Shown: positions 5,606 through 31,488 of the stretch, piece after piece
Layout of the letters: each line of letters opens with the position of its first letter
Numbering within the stretch: the first letter of the stretch is position 1
Origin: Bacillota bacterium
Lineage (GTDB): Bacteria > Bacillota > Clostridia > Christensenellales > UMGS416
Direction of reading: 5' to 3'
DNA: 64,000 nt
Assembly: GCA_023428265.1 (NCBI GenBank)
Contig: JAEYYW010000013.1
Location: forward strand, 1,943 to 65,942
Position numbers and translations under genes: made by a program
The notes under the pieces: model-generated
Databases searched by the model: none
Seen by the model: the letters and a program-made list of their open reading frames with translations, nothing else
Told to the model about the DNA's origin: nothing

Positions 5606-5695
5606 CCATTTTACTATGATAAACGCATGCGCTTTCCGCCGTTGAAGCAAAATGACAGTGCGGAGCACTCAATTACCAACAAGCAAGGTGAATCA

Positions 5696-6208
5696 ATGAA
5701 ACTTCTGGAACCATGGATGAAAGTGGACAAACTGCCTGTCATCGATTTGGATATGCTGCGGGAGCAGCAAATCGACACGCTGCTCCTGGATATGGACAAC
5801 ACCGTGGTGCCGTGGCACACGTTCAACATCGATGAAAAGACAAACGCATGGATCCAGAGCGCCAAGCAGCGCGGTTTCAAGATCTGCATCATCTCCAACA
5901 ACCAGAAGTGGCGCATCAAAAAGCTCACCGCGATTCTGGAAGTGGAAGGGGTCTGGGGCGCCTGCAAGCCGTTTCTCGGCGGTTATCTGAAAGCACTCAA
6001 GGCGCTGAAGTCCAACAGGCACACCAGTGTGTTTGTGGGCGATCAGGTCTTTACAGATATTTTCGGCGCCAACATCCTTGGTGTACGCACAATCCTGGTG
6101 AAGCCCATCTCCAACCGTGAATACAAATGGACCCGCTTCATGCGCAGGTTTGAGAAACTGATCACCGGCCGCACCTTTGACCACGAGGCCGGCGAGCATG
6201 GCAAGTGA
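5696..6208 (+). CDS. YqeG-family HAD phosphatase (subfamily IIIA)
   Basis: The internal ATG at 5696 of track ORF 5627..6208 gives MKLLEPW... Motifs LLLDMDNTVV, IISNN and VGDQVFTDI are colinear with B. subtilis YqeG as I recall it. Confidence 0.8.
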   Translation: MKLLEPWMKVDKLPVIDLDMLREQQIDTLLLDMDNTVVPWHTFNIDEKTNAWIQSAKQRGFKICIISNNQKWRIKKLTAILEVEGVWGACKPFLGGYLKALKALKSNRHTSVFVGDQVFTDIFGANILGVRTILVKPISNREYKWTRFMRRFEKLITGRTFDHEAGEHGK

Positions 6209-27371: not shown

Positions 27372-28607
27372 ATGGGCAGGATGGAGCAGGATATTGTCGT
27401 GATCGGCGGCGGCCCGTCGGGCATGATGGCGGCCATTGAGGCGGCCAGGCGGGGCAATGCCGTAACATTGCTGGAGCGCAACGAAAAGCTGGGGAAGAAG
27501 CTCTATATCACCGGCAAGGGGCGCTGCAACCTCACCAACGCCTCTGACCGCGAGCAGCTCATCGCCAACACGGTGCGTAACGGCAAGTTTTTGTTCAGCG
27601 CGTTTTCGGCCATGGGCAGCAGGGATTTGATGGACACCATGGAGCGGCTGGGTGTGCCGCTGGTGGAGGAGCGGGGCAGGAGGGTCTTTCCCGCATCCAA
27701 CAAGGCCAGTGATATCACCCGCGCCTTGCAAAACGAGCTGCACCGGCTTGGCGTGCGGGTGATTCTGAATGCACGCGTGAGCGCCATTGCTGTCAGCAAT
27801 GGCGCGGTGGCGTCTGTCAGGCTTGAGGATGGCAGGGAGTTCCCATGCCGCGCCGCCATACTGGCGACCGGCGGCGCCTCCTATCCGATGACCGGCTCCA
27901 CCGGTGATGGCTACCGTCTGGCTGAAGTGCTGGGGCACACGGTGAATGAGCCGTTGCCCGCGCTCGTGCCGATTGAGACAGCGGAGAAGTGGGCCGCCGG
28001 GCTGCAGGGCCTGGCGTTGAAAAACGTGCGGCTGACCGCCTGGCAAGGAAAGAAGAAAGTATTTTCCGAGGTGGGAGAGATGCTGTTTACCCATTTCGGC
28101 ATCACCGGCCCGCTGGTGCTGACGGCCAGCAGCTTGCTCAAGGCCGATGCTCTGGCAGAAGCACGGCTCTCGCTGGACATGAAACCGGGGTTGGAAATAG
28201 AGCAGCTGGATGCCCGCATCCTCAGGGATTTTCAGGGCAACCCCAACCGGGCACTGAAGAATTCGCTGCACGAGCTGCTACCCGGCAGGTTCTGCCCGGT
28301 TGCGTTGGAGCTGTCCTCCATCGATGGCGAGCTTCCCTGCAACCAGATCACCAAAGAGCAGCGGGGGCGCCTGGCCGCCGTTCTCAAGGATGTGCGCCTG
28401 ACCCCCAAGGCGCTGCGGCCCTTGGCAGAAGCCGTGATTACAAGGGGCGGTGTTTCCTGCAAAGAGGTTTCACCGGGCACGATGGAATCCAGGCTGGTGC
28501 AGGGCTTGTACCTCTGCGGGGAGTTGCTGGATGTGGATGCGCTCACCGGCGGGTTCAATCTGCAAATCGCCTTTTCCACCGGGTATCTTGCCGGCCATAA
28601 TTGTTGA
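27372..28607 (+). CDS. NAD(P)/FAD-dependent oxidoreductase, HI0933/BaiN-like
   Basis: DIVVIGGGPSGMMAA, GKKLYITGKGRCNLTN and a C-terminal GELLDVDALTGGFNLQ. Confidence 0.8.
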   Translation: MGRMEQDIVVIGGGPSGMMAAIEAARRGNAVTLLERNEKLGKKLYITGKGRCNLTNASDREQLIANTVRNGKFLFSAFSAMGSRDLMDTMERLGVPLVEERGRRVFPASNKASDITRALQNELHRLGVRVILNARVSAIAVSNGAVASVRLEDGREFPCRAAILATGGASYPMTGSTGDGYRLAEVLGHTVNEPLPALVPIETAEKWAAGLQGLALKNVRLTAWQGKKKVFSEVGEMLFTHFGITGPLVLTASSLLKADALAEARLSLDMKPGLEIEQLDARILRDFQGNPNRALKNSLHELLPGRFCPVALELSSIDGELPCNQITKEQRGRLAAVLKDVRLTPKALRPLAEAVITRGGVSCKEVSPGTMESRLVQGLYLCGELLDVDALTGGFNLQIAFSTGYLAGHNC

Positions 28608-28669
28608 CTGCACCCAGCATTTGGGTTATGATGAATTATCTTCCGGAATTGTGAAGAAGGGGTGGCACA

Positions 28670-29182
28670 ATGACGCTTTTCAGCTTGTTATTTTTTGGTG
28701 TTTACCTGTTGGCGTCCGGCGTGTTGATCCTGGCTACATTGCTTTTGAAGGCGCATGTCAATGTGGGGCGCATGCTGTTCGGCCTGTTCGTCCTTCTGGT
28801 TGGCGTGTCGCTGCTCACAAGCCCTCCAGGGTGGGGCCGCTTCCAGGTGGGGGATGGCAACACCGTCGCTTTTTCCAGCTGGGAAACCGTGAGCATCACC
28901 GGCAGCGGTGAGTATCTCGTGGTTTTCGGGTCAGCCAGTTATGACCTGACCGAGTTGGAGCCGGGCTCCGAAGTCAGCATTCACAGCCTGTTCGGATCCT
29001 GCTCGGTCAAGCTCCCGGCCGCAAAGACAACGGTCAAGGCGTCCAGCATATTTGGTTCCGTCAATTTGCCGGATGAGTCCTTCTCGTTTGACACAAAGGA
29101 AGAGGAGTACGGATCAGGCGATGGGAACATGATAATGGTGAATGTATCGACGGCGTTCGGCAGCGCCTCGATCAAAAAATAA
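28670..29182 (+). CDS. Membrane protein with LiaF-like C-terminal beta-rich domain
   Basis: Two N-terminal TM segments. The C-terminus has repeated FGS..V / FGSASI motifs, as in the LiaF/DUF2154-type domain. The family assignment is tentative. Confidence 0.5.
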   Translation: MTLFSLLFFGVYLLASGVLILATLLLKAHVNVGRMLFGLFVLLVGVSLLTSPPGWGRFQVGDGNTVAFSSWETVSITGSGEYLVVFGSASYDLTELEPGSEVSIHSLFGSCSVKLPAAKTTVKASSIFGSVNLPDESFSFDTKEEEYGSGDGNMIMVNVSTAFGSASIKK

Positions 29183-29220
29183 AGGGTACGACACAACGAA
29201 ACTATTTCAGGAGGCTTGTC

Positions 29221-29424
29221 ATGCAACAGGTTACAAAGGATATGCAGATTTCTGAGGTGCTCAGAATGGATATGTCCACAGCGAACATTTTTCTTGGATT
29301 TGGCATGCATTGCATCGGGTGCCCGATGGCATCGTCTGAGAGCATTGAAGCCGCTTGCGCAACCCACGGCATTGATCCGGAAGAGGTTGTGAAGAAGCTG
29401 AACGAGCATTTGTCCAACAAGTAG
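29221..29424 (+). CDS. DUF1858 / hybrid-cluster-protein-associated redox disulfide protein
   Basis: 67 aa with GMHCIGCPMASSESIEAAC. AGGAGG RBS. Confidence 0.7.
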   Translation: MQQVTKDMQISEVLRMDMSTANIFLGFGMHCIGCPMASSESIEAACATHGIDPEEVVKKLNEHLSNK

Positions 29425-29427
29425 GGC

Positions 29428-29532
29428 TGTGGATAACATCGAGCCACAAACCGCCGCAAATCCGTGATTCTCCCGCATTTCGGCCGAATAACAGGATCTG
29501 GCTGTGGAATTGTGGATAAATTCTGTGGATAC
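29428..29532 (+). promoter_or_regulatory. DnaA-box cluster
   Basis: TGTGGATAA (29428-29436, 9/9 to the complement of TTATCCACA), TGTGGAATT (29503-29511, 6/9), TGTGGATAA (29511-29519, 9/9) and TGTGGATAC (29524-29532, 8/9). All are in the same orientation. Confidence 0.6.
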
Positions 29533-29536
29533 AATA

Positions 29537-29584
29537 GGCTGCTCCCGCAAAATGGCCGAAAGCGCGGGAGCAGCCTGTTTTTTC
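29537..29584 (+). terminator. Rho-independent terminator (usable from both convergent genes)
   Basis: GGCTGCTCCCGC (29537-29548) pairs with GCGGGAGCAGCC (29564-29575), followed by TGTTTTTTC. Confidence 0.75.
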
Positions 29585-29682
29585 ATATTGCTTGGTGAAT
29601 GGCCTGGTTTCGGCGCAGCGTTCACGATCCACAGGCTGGGAAACACCATCCACCAGCCAGTGCGCTAAAGAGATACATATTG

Positions 29683-31488
29683 TTAAACTGCTTGCATGAA
29701 ACGATACTGCGCCTCGCACAAATCGCGGTATGCTCCGTTCTTTTCCATCAGCTCGTCATGACTGCCGGCCTCAATGATCTTGCCCTGATCCACCACCATG
29801 ATGCAGTCCGCTTTGCGCACGGTGGAAAGGCGGTGAGCAATCACGAAGCTGGTGCGGCCTTCCAGCACTTTCTCCAGCGCCTGCTGGATGAGGATTTCGG
29901 TGTGGGTGTCGATGGAGGCAGTCGCTTCGTCCAGAATCAGAATTCTGGGGTTGGCCAGCAGAGCCCGCGCAAAGCTGATCAGTTGCTTCTGGCCGGTGGA
30001 AAGGCGGCTGCCGCGTTCCCGCACCTCGGTCTGATAGCCATTCTCCATCTGCATGATGAACTCATGGGCATGCACGGCCTTGGCCGCCTCAATCACTTCC
30101 TCATCGGTGGCGTCCAGCCGCCCATAGCGGATGTTGTCCATCAGTGTGCCGGAGAAAATGAACGAGTCCTGCAGCATAATGCCCATCTGCTTGCGCAGCG
30201 ATCTGAGATTCACATTGCGAATGTCGTGGCCGTCAATGAGCAGGCGGCCTTTGTTTACGTCGTAAAAACGGCTGATCAGGCTCACCACTGTGGATTTCCC
30301 CGCGCCGGTCGGGCCCACCAGCGCCACTGTGCGGCCGGGCTCCACGGTGAAGCTCACGTCATCCAGCACCACCTGGCCGGCCTCATAATCATAACCAAAG
30401 GTCACGTGGTCAAACTCCACCCGTCCTTGAATCTCCGGCATGTCCTCGCAGCCTTCCTGATCCTTGATGAGGGCGGGGGTGTCCATGATCTCGAAGATGC
30501 GTTCCAGCGAGGCCATCGCTGAGAGTATTTCATAGTAGATGTTTGAGATCTGGTTCAAAGGCTCCCAGAAGCGGCCCAAATACCAGACCATTGAAAACAG
30601 CGTGCCGATGGAGAGGGGATCCACCGGAGTGTTCATCCAGTGCACGCCGAACCAATATACAAGGCAGGTGCCGGCGGAGGCCACAAGCTCAAAGCCCGGC
30701 CAGAAGATCGATCCGACAAAGATCGCCTTCATCCAGGTGCGGCGGATCTCGCCGTTGGCCTGCCGGAAGATGCGGCTGTTTTCCTCCTCACGGGTGAAGG
30801 CCTGGGTCACGCGCATGCCGGCAAGGCTCTCGTGCAGATAGGCATTGAGCGAGCTGGACTTCCAGCGCACCTCACGCCAGGCCTTGCGGATTTTGGGCTT
30901 CAGCACAAACACGATCACGATCAGCAGCGGCAGCACGGAGAAGGCTATCAACGCCAGCTTCCAGTTCAGCGCGAGCATCAGGCCTGCAATCACGAGGATG
31001 GAGAGTGCGTTTGTGAGCATGTTGACGATGCCCTGAGAAAACAGCGACAGCAATGAGTCGATGTCGTTGATCACGCGGATCATGATTTTCCCGGCCGGTC
31101 TGGAGTCGAAGAAATCGAGCCCGAGAGACTGGATGTGCCGGAACAAATCTTCACGCATCTGGGCCAGCGCCTTGCGGCCGGTCACGTTCATCATGCGCAC
31201 CTTGGCCCGCAGCATCACCGCACCCAGGCAGGATGCGCCCGCAAGCCCCGCCACAATCCAGGGCAGAATGGAGTAATCCCCACCGGTCACGCAGCGGTCC
31301 AGCGCCAGGCCAATGAGCCAGGGGCCTGTGAGGCTGCAAAGCATGTTGATGACCATCGCCACAATTGAGAGGGCCACCTTGCCCCGATAGGGCTTGAGAT
31401 ATGCCAGTGCGCGCATGAGATAGCCCTTGTTGAAGCCGCTGATGTATTTCTCATCTTCCAGCAGCAGCGCACGCCTTGCCCTTGCCAT
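29683..31488 (-). CDS. ABC exporter, fused permease/ATPase (type I, heterodimer partner 2)
   Basis: Six-TM N-domain, GPTGAGKST, LSTGQKQLISFARAL and ILILDEATA. The ATG at 31488 overlaps the upstream stop by 1 nt. Confidence 0.9.
   Translation of the reverse strand: MARARRALLLEDEKYISGFNKGYLMRALAYLKPYRGKVALSIVAMVINMLCSLTGPWLIGLALDRCVTGGDYSILPWIVAGLAGASCLGAVMLRAKVRMMNVTGRKALAQMREDLFRHIQSLGLDFFDSRPAGKIMIRVINDIDSLLSLFSQGIVNMLTNALSILVIAGLMLALNWKLALIAFSVLPLLIVIVFVLKPKIRKAWREVRWKSSSLNAYLHESLAGMRVTQAFTREEENSRIFRQANGEIRRTWMKAIFVGSIFWPGFELVASAGTCLVYWFGVHWMNTPVDPLSIGTLFSMVWYLGRFWEPLNQISNIYYEILSAMASLERIFEIMDTPALIKDQEGCEDMPEIQGRVEFDHVTFGYDYEAGQVVLDDVSFTVEPGRTVALVGPTGAGKSTVVSLISRFYDVNKGRLLIDGHDIRNVNLRSLRKQMGIMLQDSFIFSGTLMDNIRYGRLDATDEEVIEAAKAVHAHEFIMQMENGYQTEVRERGSRLSTGQKQLISFARALLANPRILILDEATASIDTHTEILIQQALEKVLEGRTSFVIAHRLSTVRKADCIMVVDQGKIIEAGSHDELMEKNGAYRDLCEAQYRFMQAV

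Follow-up and report, generated by a model that had tools for sequence, protein, structure and literature searches.

A 64-kb stretch of the genome of a Bacillota bacterium (Clostridia; contig JAEYYW010000013.1), referred to below as the window, raises the question why a group of DnaA-boxes, the 9-mer binding sites of the replication initiator DnaA, should lie between the end of a protein-coding gene and its transcription terminator. The intergenic region concerned extends from the stop codon (TAG, 29422-29424) of a DUF1858 gene to the stop codon (29683) of an ABC transporter gene that converges on it, and holds four boxes in one orientation, here numbered 1 to 4, and a weaker inverted one. The comparisons described here indicate that the boxes probably form a conserved module outside of the origin, of the type known in Firmicutes as DnaA-box cluster (DBC), and that this module most likely serves as a decoy or as a regulatory site, of a kind that Bacillus is already known to have. 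Extra-origin clusters of DnaA-boxes as such are already known, and what is new is a member with an unusually explicit and rigid architecture. The box coordinates, sequences and match scores given in a preliminary description of the window were all reproduced when the sequence was re-read and the window scanned, and the elements are as follows.

29428-29436, minus strand: box 1, perfect (9/9), TGTGGATAA on the plus strand and TTATCCACA on the minus strand; the distal box, 83 bp from box 3
29437-29502, no strand: spacer of 66 bp, free in sequence and invariant in length
29503-29511, minus strand: box 2, weak (6/9), TGTGGAATT on the plus strand and AATTCCACA on the minus strand; overlaps box 3 by 1 bp
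29511-29519, minus strand: box 3, perfect (9/9), TGTGGATAA on the plus strand; counterpart of DnaA-box #6
29524-29532, minus strand: box 4, 8/9, TGTGGATAC on the plus strand and GTATCCACA on the minus strand; starts 13 bp from the start of box 3; counterpart of DnaA-box #5
29625-29633, plus strand: inverted weak box, CGATCCACA, 7/9; lineage-limited and probably accessory

When the window was scanned for TTATCCACA with at most one mismatch, 20 sites were obtained, among them box 4 and the only two perfect DnaA-boxes of the window, boxes 1 and 3. The other 17 sites are 8/9 matches outside of the cluster, none of them perfect and none of them clustered, and the earlier statement that the remainder of the window contains only scattered 7/9 matches has to be corrected in this respect. 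All 17 lie within genes; the total of 20 is about twice the level of dinucleotide-shuffled sequence (8.5 ± 3.4), and oligonucleotide or codon bias is probably behind the excess. Four 7/9 matches at 5673-5791 were also considered and rejected, being located within a HAD-hydrolase gene and at chance level. In a Markov-1 simulation, 0.23 perfect boxes are expected per 64 kb and the probability of at least two is 0.023, while the background density of 8/9 matches leads to an expectation of 0.008 clusters per window with at least three boxes (at most one mismatch each) in 110 bp. The cluster comprises three boxes with 0-1 mismatches and one overlapping weak box within 105 bp of non-coding DNA, which is the clustering that characterizes a DBC.

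Contigs whose DUF1858 protein is identical to that of the window are too closely related to tell much about conservation and were set aside, and distant relatives were gathered in three ways, namely by scanning one genome per species, by collecting homologues of the 170-aa protein encoded by the preceding gene, and by collecting homologues of DUF1858. Among the contigs with the module are JAEYRH010000016.1 (824 kb, module near 488 kb) and JAEZSE010000005.1. The resulting footprint set consists of eight distinct lineages that share the gene order RpiR / HI0933 / 170-aa / DUF1858, with DUF1858 identities down to 69%. In all eight, the stop codon is followed after 2-5 nt (3 nt in the window) by box 1 as cTGTGGATAAc, a 66-nt spacer, CTGTGGAATTGTGGATAAATTCTGTGGATA, which contains boxes 2, 3 and 4, and, after a further 1-4 nt, a hairpin with a U run. 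Mean pairwise identity in these lineages amounts to 0.96-0.97 for boxes 1-3, 0.89-0.90 for box 4 and 0.39-0.40, close to random, for the spacer, in which not a single indel has occurred despite the randomization of its sequence. Accordingly, the distances from box 1 to box 2 (75 bp), from box 1 to box 3 (83 bp) and from box 3 to box 4 (13 bp) are fixed in 8/8 lineages; the two neighbouring intergenic spacers of these loci range from 38 to 54 nt and from 55 to 62 nt. Boxes 1 and 3 show a single kind of core substitution, from TTATCCACA to TTATGCACA, which affects the free N of the classical consensus TTATNCACA, and in L067 and L068 (L numbers denote the individual loci compared) both boxes have become TGTGCATAA, i.e., TTATGCACA. 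Box 4 is perfect (TTATCCACA) in L061, L065 and L067, and the bases beyond the DnaA contacts (AATT, ATTC) are invariant as well. The boxes are under strong purifying selection, and of the terminator it is the position and foldability that are kept (z between -2.8 and -6.6 for the seven lineages that were folded), with compensatory changes in L006/L007, rather than the sequence.

The inverted weak box is retained in L006/L007 as TGATCCACA / CAATCCACA and is absent in L058-L067, where a direct TGTTGATAA is located 67-70 bp past box 4 instead (degenerate and at +64 in L065). Of the boxes initially reported, the four direct ones therefore make up the core, and the inverted 7/9 copy at 29625, being limited to the closest relatives, falls outside of it. 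In L061, L062 and L067, the variant TTATCAACA follows box 4 of the DUF1858 module at a distance of 67-70 bp; L058 has a weaker form of it, and it is also the distal box of an origin described below (L077).

Conservation of the boxes in relatives at the DUF1858/ABC junction had been set beforehand as a test, and it is strong in the eight lineages for the boxes, whereas the junction with the ABC genes is not constant. In the window, L006 and L007, the downstream neighbour of the module belongs to a convergent ABC pair; L058 and L062 have a same-strand BioY there, L067 has an IS1595 transposase and L065 yet another gene. As the module stays constant while the downstream gene changes, it is to be assigned to the 3' end of the DUF1858 operon. 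The DNA past the terminator differs from lineage to lineage (an AT-rich island, L065:5330-5450; an IS1595 transposase with a SocA/Panacea toxin-antitoxin gene, L067:1100-2075; BioY, L058:6930-7100), and the site has the appearance of a rearrangement or insertion hotspot. Several other candidates for the conserved footprint were rejected: an RNA hairpin or cruciform in the spacer, since the lineages share no fold of the 66 nt (z from -0.06 to -3.6); a read-through peptide, since TGT GGA TAA is in frame in some lineages and offset by 2, 4 or 5 nt in others; and contamination with a lac operator or vector (TGTGGAATTGTG...GATAA resembles lacO), since the module occurs in many independent metagenome assemblies and in syntenic chromosomal context.

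A near-identical counterpart of the array is found in Firmicute origins. The basal unwinding system (BUS) is composed of the consensus DnaA-box #6, the overlapping non-consensus DnaA-box #7, a short GC cluster, the DnaA-trios, whose middle base on the bound strand is an adenine, and the unwinding element, with a third box just upstream (PMC8287927, PMC6669920, PMC7561715, bioRxiv 10.1101/2022.03.18.484894). On the minus strand, boxes 4, 3 and 2 read GTATCCACA-GAAT-TTATCCACA overlapped by AATTCCACA, then AGCC, and in this sequence they reproduce the double-stranded DNA platform of Firmicute oriC2, i.e., DnaA-boxes #5/#6/#7 and the short GC cluster; common to both are a consensus box overlapped by a non-consensus box, 2-4 G/C bases and a third box upstream. 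The 6/9 box that shares one base with box 3 is thus present as described before, but instead of a weak extra it represents the overlapping box #7 that is a hallmark of the BUS, box #7 being itself non-consensus and overlapping #6 (bioRxiv 10.1101/2022.03.18.484894). The degenerate 27-mer TGTGGANTTGTGNATAAANTCTGTGGA, with three positions free, has one match in the metagenome collection, L077, and this lies in a dnaA-dnaN spacer (Pfam Bac_DnaA, Bac_DnaA_C and DNA_pol3_beta), with YidC, Jag and MnmE beyond dnaA. Read in dnaA direction, L077 contains TTATCAACA, 32 nt, TTTTCCACA, GAAT, TTATCCACA overlapped by AAATCCACA, GGAC and six trios (CTA TTA CTA TTA TTA CTA; CTATTACTATTATTACTA), followed by an AT-rich stretch, a ribosome-binding site and the dnaN ATG. 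This contig from activated sludge (L077:149-329) has a textbook oriC2.

For reference, oriC2 was also read from Firmicute chromosomes filed in a plasmid database. The consensus box with its overlapping weak box is TTATCCACAATTCCACAGCC in the window (reverse complement of 29500-29519), TTATCCACAAATCCACAGGAC in L077, TTATCCACAAATCCACAGCGC in Listeria and TTATCCACATATCCACAGGAC in Bacillus, the oriC2 cores being TTATCCACAAATCCACAGCGC with CTATTACTATTACTAC in Listeria and TTATCCACATATCCACAGGAC with CTATTACTATTACTACTA in Bacillus sp.; the pair TTATCCACA[A/T][A/T]TCCACAG is present at oriC2 of L077, Listeria and Bacillus sp. and degenerate in Acetoanaerobium and Subdoligranulum. The distance of 13 bp between boxes 3 and 4 is common to all lineages, to the oriC2 of L077 and to the triads of Listeria, B. 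thuringiensis and Priestia considered below. Neither L077 (GC 0.46) nor the reference Firmicutes are closely related to the window organism, and the identity of the platform would speak for a widely conserved design rather than for a demonstrated copy within one genome.

What the module lacks are the parts that open the DNA. Strict DnaA-trios beside it number 0-1 in 8/8 lineages vs six in L077, at least three being expected of an origin, and the spacer was searched for trios as well and has none. The 40 nt beyond box 2 are 45-68% AT in the window clade vs 80% in L077, so that no AT-rich unwinding element is present, and the place that trios and unwinding element take in an origin is occupied in the module by the sequence-free spacer, a further consensus box and the end of a gene; on the other side it is abutted by a GC-rich hairpin. 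In contrast to the BUS, the module also has no adjacent dnaA/dnaN and no skew switch: neither gene is among the window's open reading frames scanned against Pfam, which did not include some short ones and AddB, and GC skew is positive and most genes are on the plus strand on either side. Given skew and gene orientation, the locus is neither a replication origin nor a terminus, and the view already taken that it is not oriC holds.

Arrays of the same design recur in Bacilli, where they are placed next to rlmH. BLAST of the 39-nt array against the plasmid database returned three Listeria records only, which are actually chromosomes or chromosome pieces, and the match is a 520-bp region with 16 boxes between the gene of an HtrA-like protease, itself preceded by a WalJ-like gene, and rlmH. 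Within it, the triad with steps of +8 and +13 from box to box occurs twice (starts 3001/3009/3022 and 3401/3409/3422), each time with a box pair 81-84 bp ahead, so that two units are about 400 bp apart. In B. thuringiensis and Priestia megaterium, box-NNNN-TGTGGATATGTGGATAA-NNNN-TGTGGATAA lies directly upstream of rlmH, after the gene of a small CxxH/CxxC protein.

L078:2917-3441: Listeria cluster (Listeria monocytogenes NZ_CP030101.1, about 1,873,155-1,873,679)
L085:1433-1475: triad and one further box, B. thuringiensis
L086:1433-1475: triad and one further box, Priestia megaterium

The Listeria cluster is located 322 kb, or 11% of the chromosome, from dnaA. The first box in B. thuringiensis, TGTGGGTAA, is formed by the last two codons and the stop codon of the upstream gene (Cys-Gly-stop), and in both Bacilli and in the window clade the neighbouring gene encodes a small cysteine-motif protein; these proteins have no obvious similarity by eye, no formal comparison having been made. 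The records NZ_CP030101.1, NZ_CP154629.1, NZ_CP093325.1 and others of the plasmid collection PLSDB are chromosomes or pieces of chromosomes of 2.6-5.5 Mb with dnaA, dnaN and rlmH, a caveat for plasmid statistics.

Since rlmH is yydA, the neighbourhood in Listeria corresponds to that of the B. subtilis DBC[yydA-yycS], a link that would rest on synteny (htrA-like / small CxxC protein / rlmH) and not on the sequence of this DBC. DBC[yydA-yycS] is the B. subtilis DBC with the strongest effect on initiation (Okumura 2012, PMC3245932), and B. subtilis DBCs bind DnaA and restrain initiation (PMC3245932; PMC4447404). No boxes are present upstream of rlmH in C. difficile and Acetoanaerobium, which fits with the finding that DBCs adjoin different genes in different species (PMC3245932). 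From the arrays compared, the triad appears to be a common Firmicute DnaA-binding unit, which is followed by trios at the origin and by none in DBCs, and its presence in the rlmH-upstream clusters suggests a shared building block. Such a block would be useful because the authors of the B. subtilis study found no structural features that set active DBCs apart (PMC3245932). Of the six DBCs of B. subtilis, yydA-yycS and ywcI-vpr are the active ones.

The module thus resembles the B. subtilis type of DBC as an intergenic cluster of consensus boxes outside of oriC in a Firmicute, and it has the three-box unit (+8/+13) in common with the rlmH-upstream clusters, which hold it twice in Listeria and once each in B. 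thuringiensis and Priestia. However, it comprises four boxes, or five in some lineages, vs 16 in Listeria, lies in a 3' untranslated region before a terminator and not upstream of a regulated gene, is rigidly fixed in its geometry and has DUF1858 as neighbour. With datA of E. coli, which is thought to lower the initiation potential (as summarized in PMC3245932), it shares the small non-origin cluster of high-affinity DnaA-boxes whose relative spacing matters. In contrast to the module, datA works with IHF and promotes DnaA-ATP hydrolysis, and the similarity is confined to the boxes; a spacer devoid of conserved sequence argues against a site for a sequence-specific architectural protein, although no search for an IHF motif was made. 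The preliminary description had likened the boxes to such non-origin clusters of the DBC/datA type, and this proposal gains support in kind from the conservation and from the triad common to the rlmH-upstream clusters. An origin of a phage or another mobile element was rejected: matches to the module number 0 in viral contigs, and those in the plasmid database are all to the mislabelled Listeria chromosomes.

The way in which the module might act depends on its place in the operon, for which the following elements are relevant.

28604-28632: promoter-like site TTGACT-17-TATGAT, upstream of the 170-aa gene
28670-29182, plus strand: gene of a 170-aa membrane protein, leading gene of the two-gene operon that has the module at its end
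29221-29424, plus strand: DUF1858 gene, 67 aa (PF08984, E = 4.9e-18; TIGR03980, E = 7.9e-26)
29533-29584, plus strand: intrinsic terminator of the 170aa-DUF1858 operon, with stem 29533-29548 / 29564-29579, then a T run

The promoter-like site ahead of the 170-aa gene and the gap of only 38 nt between the two genes place the boxes in the 3' untranslated end of a two-gene operon. The stem of the terminator is 16 bp long and is followed by a U run (dG -34.9 kcal/mol, z = -4.9), and in the fold of the terminator the A-rich end of box 4 pairs with the U tract. As the module is enclosed by stop codon and terminator, RNA polymerase crosses all four boxes whenever the operon is transcribed, and hence any DnaA occupancy and transcription must interfere.

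If the module is indeed a DBC, as we consider probable, we infer the following mode of occupancy. DnaA would bind boxes 1, 3 and 4 through its domain IV, and an additional protomer may be recruited cooperatively at the overlapping weak box 2. The distal box 1, phased with box 3 at 83 bp or about 8 turns, would, through looping or bridging, stabilize a compact complex in which about four or more protomers take part; distal boxes in helical phase are known from B. subtilis incC (PMC6669920). Since no strand can open, the DnaA complex on the module would be a dead end, and it may withhold DnaA from oriC or alter its state, thereby damping or timing initiation in the manner of the B. subtilis DBCs. 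Transcription of the operon might periodically clear DnaA from the module.

A number of points weigh against this reading. The phased distal boxes of incC are on the opposite side of box #6, whereas that of the module is on the 'trio side' of #7. B. subtilis DBCs are dosage-dependent and mostly origin-proximal, and both they and datA hold more boxes than the four of the module, whose titration capacity would be small. A pure sink, moreover, explains neither the strict spacing of 83 bp nor the constant position between stop codon and terminator, and it fails likewise for the invariant non-contact bases of the array. All members stem from uncultured bacteria and are known from sequence, and the DUF1858 genes of L008-L010 (59-63% identical, in glycerol-kinase context) have no boxes.

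A bolder version of the favoured DBC reading, which we put forward tentatively and as rather unlikely in its entirety, is that Firmicute DBCs are origin mimics, i.e., copies of boxes #5/#6/#7 without trios that start the initiation oligomer but cannot finish it. The present module would then be a minimal form, reduced to a rigid triad and one box phased at 83 bp, and deliberately placed between stop codon and terminator, so that transcription of a redox operon evicts DnaA, resets the trap and links the metabolic state to initiation.

Control of initiation is poorly understood in Clostridia. Neither SeqA nor Hda is known from this group, and no DBC from it is known to have been characterized. 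If the module is only a weak sink, it adds one more ordinary case to a class already known. At about 105 bp it is compact, and evolution has defined it sharply, every base of four boxes and one exact distance being fixed; as the DnaA platform of an origin minus the unwinding element it provides a clean natural substrate for studying how DnaA behaves on origin-type boxes when the DNA cannot open, and is suited to the question why helical phasing of a distal box matters.

The main rival to the DBC reading is a transcriptional role of DnaA at the terminator, to which we assign a modest chance. DnaA would act as transcription factor or roadblock that stalls the polymerase and thus sets the 3' end, the stability or the read-through of the 170aa-DUF1858 mRNA, and, with a similarly modest chance, expression of a redox-related operon or of the downstream gene would be coupled to the replication status. 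Precedents exist: DnaA represses yydA, ywlC and dnaA from B. subtilis DBCs (PMC3245932). The boxes are tied to the DUF1858 terminator in two clades, and in the window clade they end 1-4 nt before the hairpin. In E. coli, single DnaA-boxes at asnC-mioC and guaB block transcription and regulate a defined downstream gene. Schaefer and Messer, in 1988-89, are reported to have found that complexes of DnaA and DnaA-box block transcribing RNA polymerase downstream of E. coli asnC. The module resembles these systems in that its DnaA-boxes are transcribed and close to a 3' end, which makes a collision of RNA polymerase with bound DnaA inevitable. Its downstream gene, however, is not conserved and is often convergent in the window clade, which leaves no consistent target, and the boxes are followed by an intrinsic terminator, a strong one already in every lineage folded. 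A promoter regulated by DnaA finds no basis in the window either, as 29425-29682 contains no promoter-like site and the next gene is convergent and differs between lineages. A roadblock would, in addition, leave the phased box 83 bp upstream unexplained.

What keeps a transcriptional role alive, at these rather low odds, is the second clade with boxes at DUF1858, which comprises the higher-GC Clostridia metagenome-assembled genomes L012 and L069-L076 (GC 0.61-0.65). Their DUF1858 is 54% identical to that of the window, and the neighbouring genes encode DUF1292, a metallo-beta-lactamase-fold protein, DUF1858 and phosphoglucomutase (PGM). The DnaA-boxes begin 17-19 nt past the DUF1858 stop codon and form two pairs in opposite orientation, TGTGGATAAgcTGTGGAAAA, loop, TTTTCCACAgaaTTATCCACA, which double as the stem of the probable terminator hairpin (dG -53 kcal/mol, z = -4.6). 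The PGM gene follows 3' of the hairpin on the same strand, and with boxes preceding PGM, a DnaA-regulated promoter is conceivable in this clade. In L012 and L074, there is an extra, third direct pair, 82 bp from the first box, and L071 retains just TGTGGATAG...ATATCCACA.

L012:4191-4292: box region of the second clade
L074:4230-4331: box region of the second clade

A general link between DUF1858 and DnaA was rejected, as L008-L010 and the low-GC loci are without such boxes and the link is limited to the two clades. In low-GC relatives, a plus-strand TT(A/T)TCCACA lies 200-290 bp upstream of DUF1858 (L013, L016, L017, L022, L031, L035, L052), but this 'upstream box' is the start-codon region of a divergent gene (GTGGATAATATT..., V/M-E/D-N-I; GTG GAT AAT ATT) and was dismissed as a coding artefact.

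The remaining rivals fare considerably worse. That another DNA-binding protein is the true ligand is improbable, the candidates being Spo0A (0A box TGNCGAA, matched 6/7 by TGTGGAA in box 2) or a dimeric regulator on the GAATT...AATTC arms. 0A boxes overlap DnaA-boxes in B. subtilis oriC. The organism encodes the sporulation proteins SpoIIR, SleB and YpeB, and the invariance of AATT and ATTC outside the DnaA contacts would suit such a protein. However, no box fully matches the 0A consensus, and GAATT(N7)AATTC around box 3 was rejected as a dimer site, since its arms are each broken once, in L006 and L065, and uncompensated; an origin-type DnaA platform accounts for every conserved element.

Very improbable, too, is an origin-related sequence, either a decayed duplicate of the oriC2 boxes or an origin, cryptic or secondary, that serves in particular circumstances. 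The array geometry is identical and the sequence nearly identical to the oriC2 core, and several lineages have a TTATCAACA box upstream of the triad as in the oriC2 of L077, yet the missing trios, unwinding element, dnaA/dnaN and GC-skew minimum and the co-oriented genes on both sides speak against an origin, and a relic in decay would not have kept 96% box identity and exact spacing while the spacer was randomized.

Equally hard to sustain is a function at the RNA level, in which UGUGGA motifs in the 3' untranslated region bind an RNA-binding protein for antitermination, stability or as a sponge. In the window clade, all four motifs are indeed on the sense strand, and the array abuts the terminator like the targets of protein-dependent antiterminators. 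The motif is, however, identical to the 9-mer consensus of DnaA, the array also functions as double-stranded DNA at oriC2, between genes and beside trios, and both box orientations occur in Listeria and in the second clade, which argues for double-stranded DNA and not the transcript as the object recognized. Neither a conserved spacer fold nor conserved downstream genes support an RNA element, and the Rfam models are matched nowhere in the window at gathering score and, even with E ≤ 1 allowed, nowhere in 29150-29750.

A chance cluster of DnaA-box-like 9-mers without function, for which it could be said that the composition of the window somewhat favours such words (20 vs 8.5), is refuted by an expectation of 0.008 clusters per window and by exact geometry in eight lineages amid randomized surroundings, and the original judgement that two perfect boxes and an 8/9 copy are not a coincidence stands.

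As to the neighbourhood, the plus-strand genes upstream of the module are AddB/AddA, SurE, an RpiR-type regulator and an HI0933-type flavoprotein, followed by the 170-aa and DUF1858 genes, while two ABC exporter genes converge on it from the right; the terminator may also stop the transcript of the convergent ABC transporter. No tRNA was detected in the window. The DUF1858 product is a hybrid-cluster-associated redox disulfide domain with a CIGC motif. The 170-aa protein has two N-terminal hydrophobic (transmembrane) helices and a beta-rich C-terminal part, matches no Pfam or NCBIfam family and has only 6 homologue clusters among 5.8 billion proteins; its gene is always directly 5' of DUF1858 wherever upstream genes were called in the clade. 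Finally, 29470-29488 in the spacer and 29542-29560 in the terminator form a 19-nt direct repeat (79% identical; CTCCCGCATTTCGGCCGAA against CTCCCGCAAAATGGCCGAA), in which the spacer carries a copy of the terminator's 5' arm and loop; it is seen in the window lineage only, and could be the trace of a partial duplication or due to chance.

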